This document shows, one piece after another, positions 4,045-62,721 of a stretch of DNA of 64,000 bases. The notes below the pieces were generated by a model that made no database searches, was not told the origin of the DNA, and saw only the letters and a program-made list of their open reading frames with translations. Numbering within the stretch: position 1 is the stretch's first letter; every line of letters begins with the position of its first letter. The DNA is from a virus, in IMG/VR virus record IMGVR_UViG_3300025896_000028; one strand, written 5' to 3'. A program made the position numbers and the translations under genes.

Positions 4045-4488
4045 ATGAGTATAATTAAATCGATTCTAACGAATCACTTCGAGTACAAGATTACTAGAAA
4101 CTGGGACCGAACATTTTGGGCTTTTGATATTCATGGTACAATTCTTAAACCAAACTATACATTTGGTAGTACGCCAGATGAATTTTATCCAATGGCAAAA
4201 CAAACATTACAGTTCATCAGTCAACGACCAGACATTGTAATGTTCCTTTATACCTGTTCACACCCTAACGAGGTTGATGAGTATTTGGAATTGTTCAAAA
4301 AGAATGACATTCATTTTAAGTATGTGAATGAGAACCCAGAGGTTCCGACACAAACTAATGGATATGGATGTTACGATAAAAAACCTTACATGAATGTTTT
4401 GTTTGAGGACAAAGCTGGATTTGACCCAGAGAACGATTGGGGTTTGGTTTTAAATTTATTAACCGCTAACTATAATGGCAAGGATTAG
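4045..4488 (+). CDS. hypothetical protein
   Basis: ORF in operon context; no recognisable motif. Confidence 0.5.
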   Translation: MSIIKSILTNHFEYKITRNWDRTFWAFDIHGTILKPNYTFGSTPDEFYPMAKQTLQFISQRPDIVMFLYTCSHPNEVDEYLELFKKNDIHFKYVNENPEVPTQTNGYGCYDKKPYMNVLFEDKAGFDPENDWGLVLNLLTANYNGKD

Positions 4489-4837
4489 TGATTTATTAAC
4501 GTACAACTCAAATAAATTTGATAACATGAAGATTAAAACTGCTTCCGATGAAACAGTTTTATTATCTAGTAGTGAAGTCAAAGAAATTCTAACCAAATAT
4601 CTAAACGATGAGTTAGACTTTTTCGCAAAAGGTATCACAAAAGAAACGAAATCAGCGTTGACTGAAAGAGTTAACTTTAGACTTAAACAAATTGAAAGTA
4701 GCCTTGTTAGACATGTTGATGATAAAATAAACGGTATAACGGAAAAAATAGTTTCTTTGTCTACGAATAGAGTTATTGAGGAAGAAGTAAACAGACGGGT
4801 TGAGGCTCGTTTGAAAAAAATAAAAGATTCACTTTAA
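4475..4837 (+). CDS. hypothetical coiled-coil protein
   Basis: Overlapping start; charged heptad-like sequence. Confidence 0.5.
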   Translation: MARISDLLTYNSNKFDNMKIKTASDETVLLSSSEVKEILTKYLNDELDFFAKGITKETKSALTERVNFRLKQIESSLVRHVDDKINGITEKIVSLSTNRVIEEEVNRRVEARLKKIKDSL

Positions 4838-4847
4838 AAGTAAAAAT

Positions 4848-5147
4848 ATGAAAACAAAATTATTCATGACAGTATTTGTGCTGTTATTATTGACTGGATG
4901 TGCTGATGTGGCACATATACAATTCCTTGACCCTAACCAAGAAATCTATGGTTTCTGGGGTGGTGTTTGGCACGGTATGATTATGTTCCCAGCATTTATC
5001 TGTAGTCTTTTCTCAGATAACATTGCTATCTACGCTATAAACAATAACGGTTTCTGGTATAACTTCGGTTATGTTGGTGGGTTAGGTATTATAATCAAGG
5101 GTATCAAAATCTTTTTTGCTGGTTTAAGAAGTTTAAACAATAGATAA
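4848..5147 (+). CDS. small membrane/lipoprotein
   Basis: Signal peptide with lipobox-like LLLLTGC; hydrophobic segments. Confidence 0.5.
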   Translation: MKTKLFMTVFVLLLLTGCADVAHIQFLDPNQEIYGFWGGVWHGMIMFPAFICSLFSDNIAIYAINNNGFWYNFGYVGGLGIIIKGIKIFFAGLRSLNNR

Positions 5148-5905
5148 TGAAAAAGAAAATCGTAATTTTTAGTGGTGCTGGTTTAGATAGAGAGTCGGGT
5201 GTATTAACATTCCGTGACTGTAAAGATGGCCTTTGGAATAACCACAAAATCGAAGATGTTGCTACACCAGAAGGATGGGCTAAAGACCGAAGTAAAGTTC
5301 TAGATTTTTATAATGAAAGAAGAAGACAAATGCCAGAAGTTGTACCTAATGATGCACATATTGGTTTAGTTGAATTAGAAAAAGAATTTGATGTAATACA
5401 CGTTACACAGAATGTAAGTGACTTATTGGAAAGAGCTGGGGCGACAAACATTATTCACTTGCATGGTGAGTTGACCAAAGCTAGAACAAGCTTCGCAATG
5501 AATAACCCTAATGTTGTTGCATCACAACACGTATATGATATTGGTTATGATGATATTAATTTGGGTGATTTAGATGCAGAATATGAATCTCAATTAAGAC
5601 CACATATTGTATGGTTTAGTGAATATCCATTTGGGGTTGATAAAGCAAATCAAGCATTTAGAGATGCTGATGTTGTTTTGATTATAGGTACAAGTCTTCA
5701 AATTAGTTATACCATTGGATTTTTTGGGTTAACAAAATTAGAGACTCCTATTATCTATATTGACCCAGAACCAAGTCATGACTTGGATTATACTTATCGA
5801 GAATTAAAAGTTGAATATATAACCAAGACAGCAGTTGAAGGTGTAACACAAGTAGTAAATAGATTATTAACACAAGCAATCGGAGACGATAAAAACGACA
5901 AATAA
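5147..5905 (+). CDS. Sir2-family protein lacking zinc-binding cysteines (SirTM-like)
   Basis: N-terminal VIFSGAGLDRESGVLTFRD Rossmann motif of sirtuins; no CxxC..CxxC module. Confidence 0.7.
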   Translation: MKKKIVIFSGAGLDRESGVLTFRDCKDGLWNNHKIEDVATPEGWAKDRSKVLDFYNERRRQMPEVVPNDAHIGLVELEKEFDVIHVTQNVSDLLERAGATNIIHLHGELTKARTSFAMNNPNVVASQHVYDIGYDDINLGDLDAEYESQLRPHIVWFSEYPFGVDKANQAFRDADVVLIIGTSLQISYTIGFFGLTKLETPIIYIDPEPSHDLDYTYRELKVEYITKTAVEGVTQVVNRLLTQAIGDDKNDK

Positions 5906-5906
5906 G

Positions 5907-6260
5907 ATGCATTATTTTGTAGAAGGAACAATTAGACACATTGGTGAAGTACAGACATTTGGTGATAAATTCAAAAAAAGAGAATTTATCCTTGAAACTG
6001 ATGAAGCTTACCCAGAAAAATTAAAGTTAGATTTCATTAATGACAATGTAGATGCCTTGGATACCTTTATGGTAAACGAAGTTGTTACAGTTGCGTTTGT
6101 GGTTAAGGGTAGTGAATATCAAGGTAAGCACTACACCAATTTACGAGCAATAGCAATTTGTGAAGTTATTGACGAAAGAGCAGCAAAAGAATTCGCTAAA
6201 GCGAAAAAAGATAACAAAAGAGTTCAGCAATTGCTTGACTCCGTTAAAGTGAAAAAATAA
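5907..6260 (+). CDS. DUF3127 family protein
   Basis: GEVQTFGDKFKKREFILETDEAYPEKLKLDF..VAFVVKGSEYQGKHYTNLRA matches the Bacteroidota DUF3127 pattern. Confidence 0.6.
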   Translation: MHYFVEGTIRHIGEVQTFGDKFKKREFILETDEAYPEKLKLDFINDNVDALDTFMVNEVVTVAFVVKGSEYQGKHYTNLRAIAICEVIDERAAKEFAKAKKDNKRVQQLLDSVKVKK

Positions 6261-6535
6261 TGAAAAAAATAATATCTATCCTAATTTTAGGGTTATTTAT
6301 ATCTTGCAATAAGCCAAGTGATAAATATGTAGATTCACCAACACGTTTTGTAATTACTGGAATGCAAGGTGATAATAGTTTACAGCAAATGTCAATTTAT
6401 GAAGTAGAAGTAATTGATGGTAATTACTTTTCACATAGAGATGGGAACAACTTATCTTTTAGGTTTACAGATTCAGTTAACAAATTTAAGTTAGGTGATA
6501 TTATTAATTTCGAAAGAAAAAACATCATAGAATAA
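6260..6535 (+). CDS. lipoprotein
   Basis: Signal peptide ILILGLFISC (lipobox). Confidence 0.5.
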   Translation: MKKIISILILGLFISCNKPSDKYVDSPTRFVITGMQGDNSLQQMSIYEVEVIDGNYFSHRDGNNLSFRFTDSVNKFKLGDIINFERKNIIE

Positions 6536-6891
6536 TGAGTGTATTAAAATTAGAGTTAAAAGAAGAACACGTAAAATTACTTAAACATTTACGTTGGAGT
6601 CTTAACCCTCAAAATTTCATTGTTGGAGTTTCTGAGGAAGATGAACCAGCACCATTTGGTGAGAATAACATATATGAGGCAATTGACCTTATTCTTAATG
6701 GTGTCCCAAAGGAATTCGACCCGTTTAACACTGAAGAAATTCCTCAGTATTCTGATGAACAAAAAGCTGAGTGGGATAAATTATATTCTGAATTGCCGAT
6801 GGCATTGGATATTATTTTATATCGAGGTAGCTTTGAGTTAGGTAATTATAAAACTAAATTCCACGATAGAGTGTGGAAAAAAACAAACTAA
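6535..6891 (+). CDS. hypothetical protein
   Basis: ORF in operon context; no recognisable motif. Confidence 0.5.
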   Translation: MSVLKLELKEEHVKLLKHLRWSLNPQNFIVGVSEEDEPAPFGENNIYEAIDLILNGVPKEFDPFNTEEIPQYSDEQKAEWDKLYSELPMALDIILYRGSFELGNYKTKFHDRVWKKTN

Positions 6892-7221
6892 AATGAAAAC
6901 ATTAAAATTAATTGGTTATTTTCTAGCGGCATTGCTAGTGTTATTTATCATCAAAGGTATGTTCTTTGGAATATTCCTATTCACTATTGTATTGAAATAC
7001 ATACTGATAGCTGCTGTCGTTGCTGGAGTTCTTTATTTGTTTAATCGAAAAGGTAATAAATAGTAAATGATTTTTCTTTATTATTTTCTTGGGTTGATAG
7101 TCTTTATACATGTTGTAAGAGGACTATCTTATGCAATACATAAGATTATCTTATTCAACAAATATTTAAAGAAAGTTAAAAGAGAACTAGTAAATTATTT
7201 CAAAAAACATAAATAAATATT

Positions 7222-7267: not shown

Positions 7268-8260
7268 ATGAATGATTCAGTATTAGTAGCATTAGATGGT
7301 AGAGAAGATTTAGCGAATAACGTTATTGATTTTATCAATAACAATTCAAAGATAAAAGAGAAAGTAAAGCTAGACATAATCAACAGTCAGAAATTTTCTG
7401 ATGGTGAGTTATGTGTGGATTTCGAAACATCAATTAGAGGCAAGCGAGTATATATTCTATCTAGTCCTAACAATTCAGATGAAATCATAAAGTTAAACCT
7501 AGCGATAGATGCCGCCAAACGTGCAGCTGCTAGAGAGATTATTCCAATCTTACCTTATTTTCCATACGCTCGTCAAGACAAGAAAGACCAATCACGTGGA
7601 CCTATCGGTGCCAAGGTTATGGTTGAAATGATTGAGCATCGTGGAGCAACAGGTGTTATCACATTTGATTTACATGCTGACCAAATCCAAGGGTTTTTCA
7701 ATATCCCAGTTACACACTTAGAAGGTAAAAACGTATTTGATTCATACATCGCTTCGATATATGATGAAGACACTATTCTTTGTGGACCAGATGCTGGTTC
7801 TGGTAAACGTGTTAAACGTATGAAAGACCAATTATCTAACTACCACGACATTTCAATCAATTATGTAATGTTGGATAAGACTCGTAAACAAGCCAACGTT
7901 ATTGACGATATGGTAATCATTGGTGATGTTAGTGGTAAGAACGTAATCATCTTGGATGATATGGTTGATACTGCTGGAACACTTTGCAAAGCCGCTGAAG
8001 TTATTATGGAAGCTGGTGCTAAAAGTGTAAGAGCAATCATTAGTCATGGTATCTGTTCTGGTCCAGCTTTGGCTCGTATTGAAAATTCAGTTCTAACTGA
8101 ATTGGTTATTAGTGATTCCTTAAGAAAACCAACAGATTACAATGGTATCTTTGGTAATGATAAAATCAACGTGATTAGCATGTCAAAACAAATAGGTTTA
8201 GCTGTTAGTGCTATCAATAGTAAAACAAGCTACGAAGGACTTAAAAAAGAAAGATTCTAA
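7268..8260 (+). CDS. ribose-phosphate pyrophosphokinase (PRPP synthetase) homolog; possibly an ADP-ribose pyrophosphokinase (Adps-type)
   Basis: KFSDGE, DLHADQIQGFFNIPV and PRPP-binding loop VIILDDMVDTAGT are Prs-family hallmarks. Confidence 0.85.
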   Translation: MNDSVLVALDGREDLANNVIDFINNNSKIKEKVKLDIINSQKFSDGELCVDFETSIRGKRVYILSSPNNSDEIIKLNLAIDAAKRAAAREIIPILPYFPYARQDKKDQSRGPIGAKVMVEMIEHRGATGVITFDLHADQIQGFFNIPVTHLEGKNVFDSYIASIYDEDTILCGPDAGSGKRVKRMKDQLSNYHDISINYVMLDKTRKQANVIDDMVIIGDVSGKNVIILDDMVDTAGTLCKAAEVIMEAGAKSVRAIISHGICSGPALARIENSVLTELVISDSLRKPTDYNGIFGNDKINVISMSKQIGLAVSAINSKTSYEGLKKERF

Positions 8261-9095: not shown

Positions 9096-9318
9096 CTTCA
9101 CGTATTCCGACAACAATAGAAATCCTATTCAATGTACTGTACTATGTAAAGAAAAACCTAATTATATTGATTTGGAAGACTTGATTTACGTTAAGTTTAA
9201 TCATTACATAACTGAAAACAAATCAGTTAAAATTTCAAAAAACAACATTATTAAGTTTCTGAATAACAATGGTATAGAGTGTGTTAATAGAGCTTATTAC
9301 AAATCTAATAAAAAATAA
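9064..9318 (+). CDS. hypothetical protein
   Basis: ORF in operon context; no recognisable motif. Confidence 0.4.
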   Translation: MENPNYPHRFSFTYSDNNRNPIQCTVLCKEKPNYIDLEDLIYVKFNHYITENKSVKISKNNIIKFLNNNGIECVNRAYYKSNKK

Positions 9319-9319
9319 C

Positions 9320-10090
9320 ATGGGATTATCTTTAGGAGATAGAATGAAAGAATTCTACGAAAACAGAACAAAAACTTTTTTGAATAGAAGAACCATTACC
9401 ATCATTAGACTTGATGGGAAAGGATTCTCTAAATTCACTAAAAATTTAAACAAACCATTCGATGATGGATTCAGTGATGACATGGATGCAACAGCAATCT
9501 TTTTATGTGAGAACATTCAAGGTGCCAAGTTTGCTTATACACAATCTGACGAAATTAGCGTGGTGTTGTGCGACTATGATACACTTGAAACAAGTGCATG
9601 GTTCGACTATAGCGTACAAAAGATGACAAGTATTGCAGCCTCTTTGGCAACTGCTAAGTTCAACCAATTAAGACATTTAAGGTCAACAATGCAAGGTATG
9701 GAAGGGTTAGCTGAAAGCTTAAACAAACTAGCTTTCTTTGATGCTCGTGTATTCCAAGTTCCTACTGTTGATGAAATGGTTAACGCAATGATTTTCAGAC
9801 AGCAAGACTGTACTAGAAATAGTATTAGTATGGCAGCATCTGCTAACTTCTCTCACAAACTATTAGAGGGTAAATCTGGTAGTGATAAACAGGAAATGTT
9901 ATTTAACGAGAAGGGTATCAATTGGAATGACTATAAAACCAAGTATAAACGTGGTGTAGTTATCAAAAGAGTAGCTGATATAGACTATAGTGGTGAAGCA
10001 GCTGCTGTTAGACGTAACTGGGTACCATTAGAAACACCTATATTCACTAGTGATAGGGATTTTCTAATAAATCTTATGCCTAAATTGTAA
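9320..10090 (+). CDS. tRNA-His guanylyltransferase (Thg1)-like 3'-5' nucleotidyltransferase (TLP)
   Basis: IIRLDGKGFSKFT, YTQSDEISVVL and RQQDCTRNSI match Thg1/TLP catalytic motifs. Start set to the ATG at 9320 (track begins at 9281, overlapping the upstream gene). Confidence 0.8.
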   Translation: MGLSLGDRMKEFYENRTKTFLNRRTITIIRLDGKGFSKFTKNLNKPFDDGFSDDMDATAIFLCENIQGAKFAYTQSDEISVVLCDYDTLETSAWFDYSVQKMTSIAASLATAKFNQLRHLRSTMQGMEGLAESLNKLAFFDARVFQVPTVDEMVNAMIFRQQDCTRNSISMAASANFSHKLLEGKSGSDKQEMLFNEKGINWNDYKTKYKRGVVIKRVADIDYSGEAAAVRRNWVPLETPIFTSDRDFLINLMPKL

Positions 10091-12687: not shown

Positions 12688-12969
12688 ATGAAAAAGATTT
12701 ACAAATTTGAGGCCGATTTTGGTCGCATGGGAGAATTAGAAGGCGTATTCGTATCAACTGATGAAAAATTAGAAGCGTTATACGGAAAAGAAATTTATTT
12801 TGGTGAAGTGTTAGGTAAACATTCGGAAGTTATTTTAACACTAGATGTAGAACATATCACTGAAGTAACTGATGATGAAAAATTCATTGAACTTTTCGTA
12901 TTCTACAGGTTAGAAAATGGTTACAATCCTTTTGATTACTACGAAGAAGACGAAGAAGACGAAGAATAA
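12688..12969 (+). CDS. hypothetical protein with poly-acidic C-terminus
   Basis: Ends EEDEEDEE, encoded by a gaagaagac repeat. Confidence 0.45.
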   Translation: MKKIYKFEADFGRMGELEGVFVSTDEKLEALYGKEIYFGEVLGKHSEVILTLDVEHITEVTDDEKFIELFVFYRLENGYNPFDYYEEDEEDEE

Positions 12970-13421
12970 TGGCAAAGGTAATTGCAGCTGGTTTATTTAT
13001 CGTAAGAAAGGATAAAAAACTATTGATTTGTCATCCGACAAATCATGCCGAAGACTTTTACAGCATACCCAAGGGTAAGGTAGAGAAAGATGAAACTTTT
13101 TTAGAGGGTGCTTTTAGAGAAACCTATGAAGAAACTAATCTAAGTTTAAAAGATAGTAATAAATTTACTATTTACCCTTTGCAATCAGTCAACTATACAC
13201 ATAAAAGAAAGATACTATATCCTTTTTTATGTTTAGAGAACTTTGATTCAAAGATTGAATGGGGTGCTGTTGAGTTAAAGTGTAATTCCGATGTAGAAGA
13301 TGCTCGTGGTAACTTCCCAGAAATGGATGGTTATAAATGGGTAACACTAGAAGAAGCTAGACCACTGTTACATAACACACAGGCAGCTTGTATCGATAAG
13401 ATTTTACAAATAATTGGATAA
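12969..13421 (+). CDS. NUDIX hydrolase
   Basis: Nudix box GKVEKDETFLEGAFRETYEETNL. Confidence 0.75.
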   Translation: MAKVIAAGLFIVRKDKKLLICHPTNHAEDFYSIPKGKVEKDETFLEGAFRETYEETNLSLKDSNKFTIYPLQSVNYTHKRKILYPFLCLENFDSKIEWGAVELKCNSDVEDARGNFPEMDGYKWVTLEEARPLLHNTQAACIDKILQIIG

Positions 13422-13423
13422 TC

Positions 13424-13645
13424 ATGCAAATAGATTTACATGGGACTAAACATGAAGATGTAATAAGAAAGATTGACATGTTTATATGGGAGTGTATTCA
13501 AAACAACACATCTCAAGGAAAGATAATAACTGGGAATTCTCAGATTATGAAACAAATAGTTACAAGTTGTTTGGCTGAACATGGGTTAACACCTAACAAT
13601 TTATTAGCAAATAACAACGTGGGTAGCATTACCTTTGACTTATAA
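13424..13645 (+). CDS. Smr-domain protein (small MutS-related nuclease domain)
   Basis: MQIDLHG...GKIITG pattern of Smr. Confidence 0.6.
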   Translation: MQIDLHGTKHEDVIRKIDMFIWECIQNNTSQGKIITGNSQIMKQIVTSCLAEHGLTPNNLLANNNVGSITFDL

Positions 13646-13896
13646 TGTGGTATGTGTATATCTTAGAGTGTGCCGATAGTACGTTGTACACTGGGATAAC
13701 AACAGACATACAAAAACGCATTTTAACGCACAATAAAGGTAAAGGTGCAAAATATACCAAGACAAGATTACCAGTTGCTCTAAGGGCTTCATTTGAAGCC
13801 GTAGATAGAAGTAACGCAAGCAAAGAAGAATATAGAATCAAACAACTAACTAGAAAAGAAAAGTTAGAATTTATAAACAAATTAAACAACAAATAA
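13645..13896 (+). CDS. GIY-YIG nuclease-domain protein
   Basis: WYVYILECADSTLYTGITTDIQKRILTHN. Confidence 0.7.
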   Translation: MWYVYILECADSTLYTGITTDIQKRILTHNKGKGAKYTKTRLPVALRASFEAVDRSNASKEEYRIKQLTRKEKLEFINKLNNK

Positions 13897-28935: not shown

Positions 28936-29374
28936 CTCTTCTCCACGCTACTTTAGTCAGTTTATGAACTGGCACTTGCAGTGGGATTCTGCACATGATG
29001 ATTTTTTTGTTCGAGGTTAACAGATAGTGGAACCACCATTAATGCCAGTAAGGTCTGGCGTGTGACACAAGGCTTAGCGGCTGGGAGTGTAATCAAAACC
29101 AATTAGACTTGGTATGTCTATCCACTATTAGTCAATTACAAATGGCGTATGTTAATTAAGAGGTAGCACTGGCAACTATGCCGTAAATAGTAGGGAGTAC
29201 AAGTTCCTAAAGAGATGAAGCAGATGCAATATTCTCGTGCATGTACGCTACTCACCGATTTGTATAGGTGACAAGAATTAGATAAGTGGTGGAAAAGCTA
29301 AGCTGACTTCATTAGAAGTGGTGGTTCTGGGAGAATCTTAAATTAGTAGACACATAACGGCTTGGAGCAATTGG

Positions 29375-29445
29375 GGATAGCTCGTTAAACACTCAATCCG
29401 AGCGTGGCTAGCTTGGCGGTGCAAGTTCAAATCTTGCCTTATCTA
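29375..29445 (+). tRNA. tRNA-like element (~71 nt)
   Basis: T-arm gcaag-ttcaaat-cttgc; acceptor ggatagc/cttatct pairs at 6 of 7 positions; weak D-arm. Confidence 0.3.
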
Positions 29446-29482
29446 CTAAAACTGGTGACAGAGTAAGCTGAACACACATAGT

Positions 29483-29806
29483 ATGAAACTAAAAAGAGAA
29501 AATGTTTTCCCATGGGAAAATGCTATTAATGACCTTCTTTACGAAATGGAAGGTAATGAAGATTATTTAAAAGGTGCTGAAGATTTTTTAAAACTTTTAA
29601 ATGATAAAAGACTATTAAATAGTAAATATCAAATTGGCGATTTAGTCAAGATTAATTTCGGTGATACTGGAACAATTAAAAATTGTAAAGTCATAAAAGT
29701 ACATTTTACACATGATAAAATATTATATGATGTTACAGTTCAACTTAATGTGACACACATCACTAGACTATACAACATTGACAGCGTTTTCGTTGTCGGA
29801 AAATAA
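29483..29806 (+). CDS. hypothetical protein embedded in the RNA-gene region
   Basis: 107-aa ORF with an ATG start between tRNA-like elements. Confidence 0.45.
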   Translation: MKLKRENVFPWENAINDLLYEMEGNEDYLKGAEDFLKLLNDKRLLNSKYQIGDLVKINFGDTGTIKNCKVIKVHFTHDKILYDVTVQLNVTHITRLYNIDSVFVVGK

Positions 29807-30158
29807 AAACCGTTCGTAAGGAAGAATGATTGGAAGTTCTTTTGTTTGAAATGTTAGTTTTTAATTTGAGGGGTACGTAACCCGATAACAAGGTTCCTAG
29901 CATTAGAAAGAAAAGTATTCGCTGGTGGTCATAAGCCAGAGATTGTGGGTTCGAGTCCCATCCTTACCACAAGTCGCTTTGATGTTCCACTATGGAGAGC
30001 AGTTTGGATAGTTATGAAACTGGTAGCAGAATAGAGGTTTTAAAAGTTTAACCATAATAAAGCACGGCTTATTCCCAAAGAAAGGGGTTTCCTAGCCTAA
30101 TACAGAAACAAAAATAACATGAGGGTGTGTTAACCGAGGCTAAAGGTAGCACCCAAAT

Positions 30159-30362
30159 GGTTAGATGGCAGAATGGAATTGCTAATTAACAAGGTTAAGT
30201 AATGGGTTGCCGATGAGATGAGTTAGTGGACAAGTCGTGTAAACAGGTGTAACATTCATCAACCCAATAAAAGTCGTAATAATAATAAAACCTTATGTCC
30301 CAGTCAAATGGTGTCGACTAAGCGACTATAATTACACACAGGTTCGATTCCTGTTCTAACCA
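30159..30362 (+). tRNA. tRNA-like element with a ~130-nt insertion between D-arm and T-arm (candidate intron-containing tRNA)
   Basis: Perfect acceptor ggttaga/tctaacc; U8; canonical D-arm gcag-aatggaa-ttgc; candidate anticodon stem aatta/taatt flanking the insertion; T-arm acagg-ttcgatt-cctgt; ends ..ACCA. Confidence 0.35.
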
Positions 30363-30594
30363 CGAAGCCTGTTCGAGAGGTAAATCTAAGCGTAATCCTC
30401 TGACGTATAAGGTGCTTAGCTGATTGAGAAGCAGTCTTGGACAATGTGTCTGAAAATATCTTGACTATTCGGAAAGACGAAGATTACTACTTGACATGAG
30501 GCGTTAGCGACACCGAGAGTAGGGTAACAAAGAAAGACGCTCCGTGATGCTAATGATTCGGATATATGTTACTCGTTGCTGGTAGTAATCAAAT

Positions 30595-30668
30595 GGGAGT
30601 ATAGTACAATAGTATAGTATAAAGCGGCTGTAGCTGCGAGAACACGGGTTAGAGTCCCGTTACTTCCA
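30595..30668 (+). tRNA. tRNA-like element (74 nt), anticodon arm non-canonical
   Basis: Acceptor gggagta/tacttcc (7 bp including one GU); D-stem gtac/gtat; T-arm acggg-ttagagt-cccgt; discriminator A. The anticodon position is occupied by a gcggc-tgta-gctgc tetraloop hairpin. Confidence 0.4.
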
Positions 30669-30781
30669 CAAGAAATCCAACGGTTAAGCCCTATGGTCAC
30701 TGTACACAAACTATGGTAATTGGCAATGACGATGTGCACTCTTCATACTGCAATGGTTGACACTAGGAAAGACTAGAAACT

Positions 30782-30880
30782 GCGAGAGTGGCGAAGTTGG
30801 TAAACGCTAAGGTCTTTAGCCCGAAGTACAAGGGAACAACTAGGGACGTGGTGTCGGTGGTTCGAGTCCACCCTCTCGCA
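30782..30880 (+). tRNA. tRNA-like element (~99 nt), possibly type II or intron-containing
   Basis: Perfect acceptor gcgagag/ctctcgc; 3-bp D-stem gcg/cgc with an 11-nt loop; T-arm ggtgg-ttcgagt-ccacc; discriminator A. 48 nt lie between the D-arm and T-arm. Confidence 0.45.
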
Positions 30881-30977
30881 CAAAATTGGGGAATAGCAAC
30901 ATGAAGGTCGGCAAACTTTCAGACGGTTATAATCCTTTCTATCACGTTTAGCTTTGCCGAGCGACATGGTGATAGTT

Positions 30978-31048
30978 GATTCATTAGTGGAGTGGAACCA
31001 CGGGGGGCGTTGAGCCCGCAGACACTGGTTCGAATCCAGTATGAGTTT
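30978..31048 (+). tRNA. tRNA-like element (~71 nt)
   Basis: Acceptor gattcat/atgagtt (2 GU pairs); D-arm gtgg-agtggaa-ccac; T-arm actgg-ttcgaat-ccagt; weak anticodon stem with loop ttgagcc (possible GAG). Confidence 0.35.
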
Positions 31049-31156
31049 CTAGGTTATACTATTAAAGCGACATTGGTTGAGTAGTCCAGTGAGGGCACAC
31101 ATTAACAGTTTTAGCGAAAGGCTAAGGTGATAGACCACCATATAGTATAACCGAAT

Positions 31157-31255
31157 ATATAGCTAGCTCAGTGGTAGAGTGCCGAAATGGGAGCACATCG
31201 GAAGATGCAGTACCAATCGCTTGCGGAGATGGGGGTTCGATTCCCTCGCTATGTA
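31157..31255 (+). tRNA. tRNA-like element (~99 nt)
   Basis: Acceptor atatagc/gctatgt; D-arm gctc-agtggta-gagt; T-arm ggggg-ttcgatt-ccctc; 49 nt lie between the D-arm and T-arm. Confidence 0.45.
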
Positions 31256-46069: not shown

Positions 46070-46657
46070 ATGACAGATAACTTTGATTTAATTCGTCCAT
46101 TATTGAAATTCACCAGTGAAGATGATTTTTACTTCATTCAAATCTTGAAGCGAAGAAAGGACAATCCTGGATTTAATACTGATGTTGCTGTTATCAAAGA
46201 ATACTTTGTTGATAGCTTAGAATACTTTGATAAGAAACGTGAAGACATGATTGAACAAGCGACCAAGAACAACGCTAGGGTTACAATCAGACTAAACAAG
46301 CGTTCTTACCAAAAGACAGCATTGAAGATGCTAGTTGATGTTGCCAATAAATTTGAGCAAGGTCAGTACAGAGCAGTTAAGTCTTCATTTTCAAGTTGTG
46401 CGGGTAAATACTCTGCTGATAAAGAAAAGACTTGGTTAGTCGATGTTGATTCCGAAGACTTGCAGAACTACAACATGGATGAAGTGGTAGTTGCTATCAA
46501 TGAATCTATGCCAGTTGGTGATAAGGTTTTGGGTAAGATACCAAGCAAGACTGGTTACCACTTATTGGTTAAGCCTTTTGATTTGAGAATATTTTCTGAA
46601 AAGTATAAAAGTCTTGACTTGAAGAAGGATAACCCAACTAATTTGTTCATACCTTAA
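46070..46657 (+). CDS. hypothetical protein
   Basis: Promoter motif at ~46043. Confidence 0.5.
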   Translation: MTDNFDLIRPLLKFTSEDDFYFIQILKRRKDNPGFNTDVAVIKEYFVDSLEYFDKKREDMIEQATKNNARVTIRLNKRSYQKTALKMLVDVANKFEQGQYRAVKSSFSSCAGKYSADKEKTWLVDVDSEDLQNYNMDEVVVAINESMPVGDKVLGKIPSKTGYHLLVKPFDLRIFSEKYKSLDLKKDNPTNLFIP

Positions 46658-46732
46658 AAAAGTTTAAAAAAAACTTGTGTATGTCAAAAATTATTCATAC
46701 CTTTGTAATCTAATCCTTAAATACTAATTATT

Positions 46733-46990
46733 ATGAATGCAGTAAAAGTTGAACCAGTAAAGACATCAACCAGAAAACGTCCTAACAAAACGTTTATCCA
46801 ACAAATGGCAGAGTTCAGAGGTCACATGACCGAGAATGAGAAAACTCAATTAAAGGGTCTGGAAGTTAAAAACGCATTGCAACGCATCAACAACCGAGCA
46901 ATGGACGAAAAGCTTAGCAATGAGCAAAACCTTGAATTGCAGAAAGCAATGGATATGTTTGTAAAAAGCATTGACAAGGTTCTAAAATAG
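46733..46990 (+). CDS. hypothetical protein
   Basis: Promoter motif at ~46698. Confidence 0.45.
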   Translation: MNAVKVEPVKTSTRKRPNKTFIQQMAEFRGHMTENEKTQLKGLEVKNALQRINNRAMDEKLSNEQNLELQKAMDMFVKSIDKVLK

Positions 46991-46994
46991 GCTA

Positions 46995-47290
46995 ATCGGG
47001 TTCTCTTATGCACGGGAGAGGAAAGTACCTACAAGGGATGTAGGTAGCCCTAACAATATATAGGATAGAGGGAAATACTAGCTAGGGATTTATCTTGTCG
47101 GATAATGAAATCACTCGCCATCGGCTCCAAACCCCCCCTCGACTCCTTAGACATAATTTGGGTTTTGGTGACTTACATACGTGCTAGTACTTGATTAGCG
47201 TTTGGCGGTGAAGACGGACAGTTGGAAAGACAACGAATCACAATCGGTTAGAAGGCAATCTTTTTGCATTTTGGTTGCCTTCGACATCGA
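46995..47290 (+). ncRNA. candidate structured non-coding RNA (ORF-free, GC-elevated)
   Basis: ~300 nt without ORFs; hairpins cctaca-aggga-tgtagg and gaaggcaa-N16-ttgccttc; GC noticeably above flanks. Confidence 0.3.
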
Positions 47291-47308
47291 TACTTAAAAA
47301 AAAGAAAA

Positions 47309-47506
47309 ATGACATCATTAGAAATCATACTTATCATAATTGTTTGGATAAACTTAGGGTTATTCATTTGTAAAAAAAGAAACTGGTATCAATCAGAAGG
47401 TGATGATGATGCTATCTTCACTTGTGTTTTTGGTGTAATATTTGCACCATTAAATCTTATTCTAACAATCGTTAAGGTTTATTTAATCAAAGACTGGGAA
47501 AACTAA
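47309..47506 (+). CDS. small membrane protein
   Basis: MTSLEIILIIIVWINLGLFI; start re-set from track 47264. Confidence 0.4.
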   Translation: MTSLEIILIIIVWINLGLFICKKRNWYQSEGDDDAIFTCVFGVIFAPLNLILTIVKVYLIKDWEN

Positions 47507-52295: not shown

Positions 52296-52299
52296 AACT

Positions 52300-52557
52300 A
52301 TGAAAAAAATCTTATTATTACTAGCCATTGTATTGATGATGGTTAGCTGTCAAAAGAAAGGTGCTTATCAATACCTTATCTACATGAATGATGGTGAAGT
52401 CGTTAAGGCTTGGAGTGTTGAACCATCGGGCGGTGGACTATCTGTTACACCACCAATGGGTACTAGCGGACATTATTACTTGTCTAGTTCAACTTATACC
52501 AAAGCTCAATTCGTTGGGTCTAAGGGTTGCGGTTGCGGTTCAAACCCAAATCGATAA
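52300..52557 (+). CDS. lipoprotein
   Basis: LLLLAIVLMMVSC lipobox. Confidence 0.45.
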   Translation: MKKILLLLAIVLMMVSCQKKGAYQYLIYMNDGEVVKAWSVEPSGGGLSVTPPMGTSGHYYLSSSTYTKAQFVGSKGCGCGSNPNR

Positions 52558-61757: not shown

Positions 61758-61971
61758 ATGGTTAAACAGGAAGTAACATACTACCCAGATACATTTAGAA
61801 TCAAAGAATACAAAGAATATCATAACGATGTTTTAGTTGTTCACACCAAATATGATGAGAACAACAAAAAGGTTTATATATATCTAGCCTATGCTGATTT
61901 TCTATGGGAAACTAAAGAAAAAATATTGGTGTAGATTTGCATATATGAAATATTATATGTACCTTTGTACT

Positions 61972-62721
61972 ATGAAAAAAGATAAACTATACGGAGCAAT
62001 ACTTGGTGACCTCGTAGGACAACCCTACGAGTTTCCCATTATGGCAAACTTCCCACCAGAAGATACAATCAACCTACATAACCCAGATTCAGTATTTAGC
62101 GATGATACGCTAATGACACTGGCAACCGCCAAAGCAATCCTAGATAACCAATCATTCGAGGAAGCATACAAAGAAGTAGGTATGAGATACCAAGGCGACC
62201 ACTATGGCAAAGACTTCAAAGAATGGCTTAACTCACCAATGGGTACGATTAATAAATCTTGGGGCAACGGGTGTCTGATGAGAATAGCACCGTTTATGTA
62301 TCTATCAAACGCTTTGTTAACAACCAAAGAACTTATCGCTGAATCTTGCCTAACATCACACGTGAACGCTGAAAGCATTGTATATTCGTTGGAATTGGCT
62401 GAACTGTACTATACAAATCTTAATGAGTATGACTACTTTATTAAGTTTAAATTATTTCCATTTACAAAGTTTGAAGTGAAAGCCAAAGATACATTTAGAT
62501 TCTGTAAAAGTGCATTTATCTATCATTCAGATAAGAATACCCAAGATGCTATCAAAAATGTTGTTAGCTGTGGCGGTGATACAGATACCAACGCATCAAT
62601 AGTTGGTGAACTACTTAACTATCACCTTCAAGACCTAACACAAGCAGACATAGACTACGTAGAAAGTAAACTAGACCCTTATCTACTAGATATCCTTAAA
62701 CGATTTAATGAAAGATACTAA
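61972..62721 (+). CDS. ADP-ribosylglycohydrolase (ARH/DraG family)
   Basis: N-terminal LYGAILGDLVGQPYEF (GAxxGDxxGxPxE) and C-terminal SCGGDTDTNASIVGELL di-metal motifs. Start re-set to the ATG after tacctttgtact (track begins at 61891). Confidence 0.75.
   Translation: MKKDKLYGAILGDLVGQPYEFPIMANFPPEDTINLHNPDSVFSDDTLMTLATAKAILDNQSFEEAYKEVGMRYQGDHYGKDFKEWLNSPMGTINKSWGNGCLMRIAPFMYLSNALLTTKELIAESCLTSHVNAESIVYSLELAELYYTNLNEYDYFIKFKLFPFTKFEVKAKDTFRFCKSAFIYHSDKNTQDAIKNVVSCGGDTDTNASIVGELLNYHLQDLTQADIDYVESKLDPYLLDILKRFNERY

Follow-up and report, generated by a model that had tools for sequence, protein, structure and literature searches.

Bacteriophage T4 carries two stable RNAs in its tRNA cluster, species 1 and 2 (rnaC and rnaD), which are co-transcribed with the tRNAs and released by tRNA-processing enzymes. 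They are about 140 nt long, their function is unknown and no pseudoknot core has been reported for them. The GOLLD and ROOL RNAs are much larger (500–800 nt). They are ornate and strongly covarying, are often encoded by phages and often found beside tRNA genes, form multimeric cages and also await a function. Large conserved RNAs with multiple pseudoknots are rare, and those whose function has been solved are almost all ribozymes, riboswitches or cores of ribonucleoprotein machines. The RNA described here is phage-encoded, in some phages tRNA-linked, and of unknown function, as are the T4 RNAs (from an unrelated phage), and it resembles GOLLD and ROOL in its ornate, covarying structure. However, it measures 235–300 nt and is not matched by the GOLLD or ROOL models of Rfam. 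By analogy, these two groups would be its nearest functional counterparts, although neither is related to it in size.

The window is a 64,000-nt stretch of viral DNA (IMG/VR record IMGVR_UViG_3300025896_000028). Its genes lie nearly all on the + strand, and a recurring motif that includes TAnnTTTG, the −7 element of Bacteroidota promoters, stands ahead of them. Besides a tRNA region, the window has genes for an RNase II/R homologue, a Thg1-like enzyme, NAD-salvage enzymes, Sir2 and a sigma-70 factor. Relatives of the genes that flank the RNA reside on contigs of 230–331 kb, and the RNase II/R homologue finds its best phage matches in uncultured phages of 634–642 kb. Judged from these sizes, the window comes from a jumbo phage, with a Bacteroidota bacterium as the probable host.

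An earlier note on this DNA, made from the letters of the window alone, had pointed to a segment of about 300 nt (46995–47290) that seemed free of ORFs, richer in GC than its surroundings and devoid of promoter motifs, and that contained two strong hairpins; a noncoding RNA was proposed. These descriptions are accurate. Stops break all six frames between 46991 and 47308, and the frame stays closed if TAG or TGA is read as sense, as TAA stops persist. The ORF-free stretch is limited by the TAG stop of an 85-aa gene (46988–46990) and by the next credible start, the ATG at 47309; a listed TTG ORF (47264–47506) is merely an upstream extension of the 47309 gene. The GC content of 46991–47308 is 0.428, against 0.335 for the window and 0.28–0.39 for the flanks (0.436 for the conserved unit, 47060–47295). 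A motif scan found no TAnnTTTG inside the stretch, the nearest occurrences being at 46698 and 46954. Both hairpins exist: TACCTACA-AGGGA-TGTAGGTA at 47026–47046, and GAAGGCAA (47251–47258) facing TTGCCTTC (47275–47282) across a 16-nt U-rich loop. Folding energy proves nothing for this stretch, because the single-sequence fold is unremarkable (MFE −82 kcal/mol, z = −0.80; 20 of 100 shuffles fold equally well). The evidence against chance thus comes from comparison with homologues and not from folding energy.

We recovered homologues, all read on the + strand, by two routes, the neighbouring 85-aa protein and DNA patterns of invariant bases. The 85-aa protein has 62 homologues. Contigs with close ones show a similar gap 3′ of the gene that can be aligned to the window; contigs with distant ones show no such gap. 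A pattern of invariant bases derived from the first alignment then yielded further copies, on 3 contigs of IMG/VR and in JGI metagenomes, where 12 of the 16 matches were true. In all, 18 distinct sequences were obtained from metagenomic jumbo-phage contigs. The family occurs in a jumbo-phage clade with relative contigs of up to 331 kb and Bacteroidota-type promoters. The scans demand exact motifs, and within that limit no IMG/VR contig beyond these 3 carries the RNA; a pattern for the 3′ domain gave only coding or chance matches in IMG/VR, and a 16-mer from the loop of helix C mostly chance matches. One sequence pattern run against 185,579 representative bacterial and archaeal genomes returned no copy (2 chance matches), and blastn with three RNA variants found no match in 50,697 GenBank phage records. 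As far as tested, with one pattern scanned against cellular genomes, the RNA is phage-specific. Neither nhmmer nor a covariance model detected a second or divergent copy in the window or in distant relatives.

The features of the locus are as follows.

46733–46990, + strand: 85-aa gene (family c2, no known domain), the upstream neighbour and not part of the RNA
46954–46961, + strand: possible internal promoter TATGTTTG, with TTG 19 nt upstream, within the 3′ end of the 85-aa gene
46991–47059, + strand: accessory 5′ extension, with hairpins TCTCTT/GAGAGG (47002–47021) and TACCTACA/TGTAGGTA (47026–47046), then AGCC
47060–47215, + strand: conserved core, starting with invariant GGAUA (47063–47067) and ending with near-invariant AAGAC (47211–47215)
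47063 and 47293: sequence landmarks, GGAUAG and AUCGAUAC, respectively
47068–47072 with 47136–47140, + strand: PK1, GAGGG with CCCUC in the loop of helix C; 5 pairs, 97.5% paired
47076–47082 with 47183–47189, + strand: helix A, UACUAGC with GCUAGUA; 7 of 7 pairs covary, 100% paired
47090–47105, + strand: hairpin B, UUAUCU-UGUC-GGAUAA; 6 pairs, 98% paired, 2 covary (UUAUC/GAUAA to UCAUC/GAUGA)
47112–47120 with 47203–47210, + strand: helix G, CAC-U-CGCCA with UGGCGGUG; 3 bp, 1-nt bulge, 5 bp; forms a pseudoknot with helix A
47123–47173, + strand: hairpin C, GGCUCCAAACCC (47123–47134) with GGGUUUUGGUGACU (47160–47173); 14 pairs, 97% paired, 10 covary
47179–47201, + strand: helix H, ACGU (47179–47182) with GCGU (47198–47201); 4 of 4 pairs covary, 100% paired
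47221–47234, + strand: hairpin D, GUUG-GAAAGA-CAAC; 4 pairs, 3 covary; absent in the L043 variant
47236–47247, + strand: single-stranded motif AAUCACAAUCGG, near-invariant (17 of 18 sequences), running into helix E
47243–47291, + strand: 3′ hairpin, with helix E (AUCGGU 47243–47248 with AUCGAU 47286–47291) enclosing helix F
47251–47258 with 47275–47282, + strand: helix F, GAAGGCAA with UUGCCUUC, the second hairpin of the earlier note
47309–47506, + strand: gene for a 65-aa two-helix membrane protein (family c7), the downstream neighbour

We counted pairs in a sequence-based MAFFT alignment of the 18 distinct sequences (alignment A3) that had not been fitted to any structure. The core has 48 pairs, of which 96.5% are canonical; sliding the 3′ partners by 1–3 columns, as a control, drops the canonical share to 33–48%. 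In 34 of the 48 pairs both sides have changed, and none of 500 shuffles attained the observed covariation score. The proposal of a noncoding RNA is therefore strongly supported by very strong covariation across the 18 homologues. Many G–U pairs form on the + strand (one G–U is found in 18 of 18 sequences, another pair, U–G, in 17 of 18). Such pairs would be mismatches on the opposite strand, so the + strand, which is also that of the neighbouring genes, is the folded one.

Helices A to F came from RNAalifold; the crossing helices PK1, G and H came from inspection and a scan of column pairs. On the comparative evidence the RNA folds into a compact core, with helices A, B and C interlocked by the three pseudoknotted helices; hairpin D and the long 3′ hairpin (E/F) come after it. 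Three of the five PK1 pairs have changed on both sides (for example to GAGAG/CUCUC in L005 and L066). Five of the eight pairs of helix G, which is 94% paired, have done so too (for example CAUCA/UGAUG, CAACC/GGUUG and CCCAUCA/UGAUGGG). The loop of hairpin C, about 25 nt long, contains the 3′ strand of PK1 and a conserved GA-UCC..GACAUAAUU. Helix H, found in the column-pair scan, encloses the 3′ strand of helix A and the loop CUUGAUUA; in this region GAUUA (47193–47197) is invariant, and over 90% of the sequences keep the G that follows it (47198). In a model-fitted alignment, helix E of the 3′ domain is 92% paired, and both partners have changed in 4 of its pairs. Helix F forms in every sequence with differing letters and is poorly aligned because of indels. 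The motifs that remain unpaired and invariant or nearly so are GGAUA, AGG, AA, CAUCGG, UCC..GACAUAAUU, CUUAnAU, GAUUAG, AAGAC and AAUCACAAUCGG. Three further elements were rejected. A long closing helix (GCUAAUC/GAUUAGC) exists only in the single-sequence fold, is not conserved and lacks its 5′ half in many homologues; pairing of the 5′ GGAUA with the 5′ strand of hairpin B has no covariation support when A3 is inspected by eye; and the sequence of helices E and F does not fit a kink-turn.

The proposed noncoding RNA thus stands, with a revised extent and architecture: the conserved unit is 47060–47295, made up of the core (47060–47215) and a 3′ domain, and the multi-pseudoknot core could not have been seen in the earlier reading. 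The first of its two hairpins is real but sits in a 69-nt 5′ extension found in only some homologues. The extension is conserved in the window, L031, L005–L007, L061 and L062 only, with a compensatory change from CCTAC/GTAGG to TCTAC/GTAGA, and is missing from L008–L010, L055, L057, L066 and others. In L031 it follows an inserted ParB-like ORF and not the 85-aa gene, showing that the extension travels with the RNA.

The RNA cores of L008 (2772–2950) and L009 (2772–2951) are only 78% identical, with all helices compensated, yet the 85-aa genes beside them are 100% identical, the denV-like genes 98% identical and the 3′ hairpins of the RNAs identical. This contrast between flanks and core indicates, as far as sequences can, that the core acts as an exchangeable functional cassette, through either exchange or rapid diversification.

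None of the 4227 models of Rfam 15 matched 46991–47308 at E≤10, in a 1-kb scan or with the 251-nt core, consistent with an uncatalogued family. At the gathering threshold, Rfam found only 3 tRNAs in the whole window (around 30.6–31.3 kb); scans of 17 homologous loci gave only tRNAs. A tRNA or tmRNA was excluded: ARAGORN called one tRNA, at 30978–31049, and nothing in the region of the RNA, where the tRNA and tmRNA models of Rfam were also silent. The literature searched contains no description of this RNA; its inclusion in a 2023 catalogue of 10,006 candidate phage RNAs is not excluded. On the comparative evidence, the structured RNA is genuine and under strong selection; its interlocked fold is unusual, and no relative of it has been catalogued. 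We rate it a new RNA class, orphan structured phage RNAs being already known as a general category.

We then considered the genomic surroundings of the RNA. In the closest relatives the order is a denV-like gene, the 85-aa gene, the RNA and the small membrane-protein genes c7, c0 and c10. In the window and most loci, the RNA lies directly 5′ of the small membrane-protein genes, separated by an A-rich spacer of 17–30 nt with no promoter between. The 85-aa gene adjoins the RNA in 13 of 18 loci and occurs without it in L011–L015 and L045–L047; the syntenic relatives L094 and L095 keep c7-c0-c10 and lack the RNA. A fixed tie of the RNA to the 85-aa gene or to c7 was rejected, since each occurs without it. 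The contexts differ in L043, L048 and L063. No partner protein could be identified, as all neighbours are without known domains: Pfam and PHROG searches were uninformative for the flanking small proteins, and family matches were confined to a 195-aa gene (a PHROG of unknown function) and the denV-like gene.

Promoters and tRNA genes border the RNA at several loci. L052 and L058 lack the 85-aa gene, and a phage promoter-type motif (ATTAATACATTTGTATTAAC) ends about 17 nt before GGAUAG. In L050 the order is promoter, tRNA-like element, RNA and a second tRNA-like sequence. A phage promoter thus lies directly or closely upstream of the RNA in three lineages. In L052 a tRNA-Met begins one base past the end of the RNA; in L057 a tRNA starts at its end, the Rfam coordinates overlapping the trimmed RNA end by 1 nt. 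The criterion exemplified by T4 rnaC and rnaD, an RNA gene within or abutting a tRNA transcription unit, is therefore met in L050, L052 and L057; the other 15 of the 18 loci, including the window, whose tRNA cluster is 16 kb from the RNA, show no tRNA or tRNA-like adjacency. In the window, the motif at 46954 is spaced much as the promoter-like one at 46698 is, but may be coincidental, since conserved Phe-Val codons overlap it.

Several other genes were noted at these loci. Two separate lineages (L031, 1388–2377 of the re-oriented ±3.5-kb stretch; L050, about 12800–13795) have an inserted ORF of 330–344 aa, with a ParB-like DGQQR motif, that parts the 85-aa gene from the RNA unit; it may be a free-standing homing-type nuclease aimed at this conserved position. 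L094 has a TnpB/Cas12f-like (OrfB_IS605) gene on the − strand (4350–5525). In L003, a distant relative, a 300-aa ORF (6228–7130) downstream of the homologue of the 195-aa gene has a Cas7/RAMP-type CRISPR look, by eye and from its translation only.

The tRNA region of the window lies in an almost ORF-free stretch of about 2.2 kb with 42% GC (28957–31170), which also contains tRNA-like T-arm sequences that no tool called as tRNA genes. Lak phages are reported to have large intergenic regions with high expression, and by comparison with these the stretch looks like an island of stable RNAs. Its tRNA genes are the following.

30595–30668: tRNA gene
30782–30880: tRNA gene, intron-bearing
30978–31049: tRNA gene
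31157–31255: tRNA gene, intron-bearing

Two more intron-bearing tRNAs are found in L057 (5206–5325 and 4764–4881). The introns lie in the anticodon loop and are short (23, 28, 47 and 25 nt; ARAGORN in intron mode). One of the intron-bearing tRNAs of the window has the anticodon UUA and would read the UAA stop codon; one of the L057 introns holds a T-arm-like hairpin of its own. Such tRNA introns have been called enigmatic in Lak megaphages (Devoto et al., bioRxiv 10.1101/356790), and no mechanism for removing them is known.

A small module, GAC(a) followed by a 4-bp stem with a GAAAGA hexaloop, occurs at 30468–30481, at 30763–30776, just 5′ of the tRNA that starts at 30782, and at 47221–47234, where it is hairpin D. 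Stem-GAAAGA-stem sites occur 6 times in the window, where 1.3 are expected, and the module may be a processing or protein-binding signal. Elsewhere in the window we noted genes for NAPRTase (14–1057), Sir2 (5147–5905), PRPP synthetase (7268–8260), the Thg1-like tRNA 5′-end enzyme (9281–10090), the RNase II/R homologue (19406–21334) and an ADP-ribosylglycohydrolase (61891–62721), which form a tool kit for NAD salvage and RNA repair. The + strand ORFs of at least 100 aa end in TAA (77), TAG (11) or TGA (0), and TGA appears to be shunned within reading frames as well as at their ends. Two further ORF-free gaps, 1676–2026 (351 nt) and 52296–52526 (231 nt), have a GC content of 0.38–0.39, above the window mean; ARAGORN found nothing in either.

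What, then, is the RNA? Our preferred explanation, which we hold with even confidence, is that 47060–47295, with the optional 5′ extension from 46991, is the gene of an uncatalogued, stable, structured noncoding RNA that stands free, acts in trans and is not a leader. The promoters of its own in L052 and L058, its tRNA neighbours, the neighbour genes that occur without it, its other contexts and its cassette behaviour all mark the RNA as an independent module. The conservation of neighbour genes in its absence, the adjacency to tRNA genes and the promoters favour a free-standing, processed, trans-acting RNA over a leader. Its size of about 235–300 nt is inferred, as no transcript data exist for its expression, ends or stability. 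The RNA would be transcribed rightward, from its own phage promoter or by read-through from the upstream gene, and would then be excised from a longer transcript, with its ends defined by tRNA processing at the loci where tRNA genes adjoin it. Its fold would hold the invariant unpaired nucleotides in fixed positions as a functional surface, and the RNA would act in trans as a scaffold that binds protein or RNA, or as a catalytic RNA, most plausibly within a stable-RNA and tRNA programme of the phage. It would not regulate the membrane-protein genes downstream. A ribozyme or tRNA-linked role is possible, and no activity data bear on it. An antisense or guide function was rejected because complements elsewhere in the window are no longer than chance: the longest complementary target in the 64 kb is 11 nt, and 9-mers are as numerous as expected by chance.

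The main rival to a trans-acting RNA is a cis-acting leader, either a riboswitch or a protein-binding element that controls the c7, c0, c10 operon. A cis role cannot be excluded at the window and at most loci, where the A-rich spacer is all that separates the RNA from these genes. In nearly every locus the RNA immediately precedes the next ORF, in the same orientation, and the divergent copy of L048, found on another contig of 122 kb, also has a c7 homologue after it. Large riboswitch aptamers (cobalamin, lysine, M-box, and orphan RNAs of the raiA type) share its size range, its combination of junction and pseudoknot and its position upstream of genes, and its compact pseudoknotted core with invariant unpaired purines is like that of a large aptamer. 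An alternative fold is also conceivable, since AUCGG occurs twice (47120–47124 and 47243–47247) and the 3′ AUCGAU could pair with either. In contrast to these aptamers, however, the RNA has no Rfam match and no expression platform: no terminator-like site was found on the + strand in 46600–47400, and the A-rich spacer ahead of the ATG stays unpaired, leaving no structure over the start codon. An intrinsic terminator was rejected, the only terminator-like call being on the − strand (47046–47026) and hairpin F being followed by GACAUCGAUAC without a U tract. Moreover, tRNA or tRNA-like genes separate the RNA from the next ORF in L050, L052 and L057, the c7-c0-c10 genes of L094 and L095 do without it, and the ORFs downstream in L043 and L063 are unrelated and do not encode membrane proteins. 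The single syntenic context offers no hint of a ligand. We consider a leader unlikely, if still to be taken seriously. By comparison, the idea that the stretch is no RNA at all is barely tenable. A decayed protein gene, a DNA-level site (an origin or a packaging site) or a chance GC-rich spacer could account for the unremarkable folding energy and for the small ORFs called in part of the region in some public contigs (e.g. L007 and L009). All are already contradicted by covariation, with its 34 compensated pairs and strand-specific G–U pairs, and the flanking promoters and tRNA genes share one direction. A decayed gene in particular, which the earlier note had named among the findings that would refute it, was rejected: all 18 homologues have stops in every frame and none has a usable one, the longest open stretch (29–68 codons) lies in no conserved frame, indels are not in multiples of three, and substitutions are paired across helices and not periodic.

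Two catalytic versions were also weighed. Small self-cleaving ribozymes are common in phage genomes, and interlocked pseudoknots within about 150 nt are typical of them (HDV-like, twister and glmS). The RNA might accordingly cut a polycistronic transcript at its own edge, separating the upstream mRNA from the RNAs downstream. It shares with these ribozymes a compact build of short helices interlocked by pseudoknots around invariant unpaired bases, all within about 150 nt; its conservation starts abruptly at UAGGAUAG, beside PK1; and it lies between cistrons or between tRNAs. Yet its strand order differs from that of HDV-like, glmS and twister ribozymes, it is far larger than the classes that cleave at their 5′ side, such a role would not need the elaborate conserved 3′ domain, and the scans at E≤10 gave no match to any known ribozyme model. 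A cleavage site is neither known nor to be deduced from sequence alone. Self-cleavage therefore seems improbable to us. Membership in the known self-cleaving classes or in group I or II introns was rejected for want of an Rfam match, the flanking genes being complete and intact without the element. The layout P2-P3-P4, with its characteristic helix sizes, belongs to the established anatomy of RNase P RNA, and the strand order here (5′ strand of A, hairpin B, 5′ strand of G, then the 3′ strands of A and G) equals P2-P3-P4-...-P2′-P4′. Like P2, helix A is 7 bp long; helix G follows the pattern of P4, with one bulged base between 3 bp and 5 bp, and is preceded by a pair of invariant A residues. 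In three lineages tRNA genes adjoin the RNA or are co-transcribed with it, and the phages encode a Thg1-like tRNA repair enzyme and tRNAs with 23–47-nt introns whose removal is unexplained. A reduced RNase P-like RNA, or another trans-acting ribozyme, could thus mature the unusual tRNAs of the phage, some of which bear introns. Against this, the universal CR-I (GAGGAAAGUCC) and CR-V (ACAGAA..GGCUUA) are absent, their counterparts reading UGAAAU-CACUCGCCA and GAUUAGCGUU-UGGCGGUG, and the bulged position, a conserved U in RNase P RNA, varies among U, A and C in the 18 sequences. No P1 helix emerged from a column-pair scan of the alignment lengthened by 25 nt at both ends; the 5′ end pairs instead into the loop of C. 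PK1, helix H and the 3′ domain are extra to the RNase P core, helix H and the 3′ domain having no counterpart in it, while a specificity domain is missing. All RNase P models of Rfam were silent at E≤10 on the 251 nt, and there is no long complementarity to the tRNA region. The likeness is thus one of topology only: the P2-P3-P4 test is met and is insufficient for membership, and we regard an RNase P-like or other tRNA-maturing ribozyme as very improbable. A new class of trans-acting jumbo-phage ribozyme built on an RNase P-like P2-P3-P4 core, which would help to mature the unusual tRNAs and possibly act on their anticodon-loop introns, is a decidedly doubtful conjecture, resting on resemblance.

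The modest size of the RNA puts it within reach of direct biochemistry and structure determination, and it adjoins tRNA genes in phages with unexplained intron-bearing tRNAs. If it were a regulator, it would still be a new aptamer class; if the ribozyme reading were true, its work could include the removal of tRNA introns, for which no mechanism is known in bacteria. Because the RNA travels with tRNA genes, its function could bear on the translation apparatus that huge phages carry for themselves.
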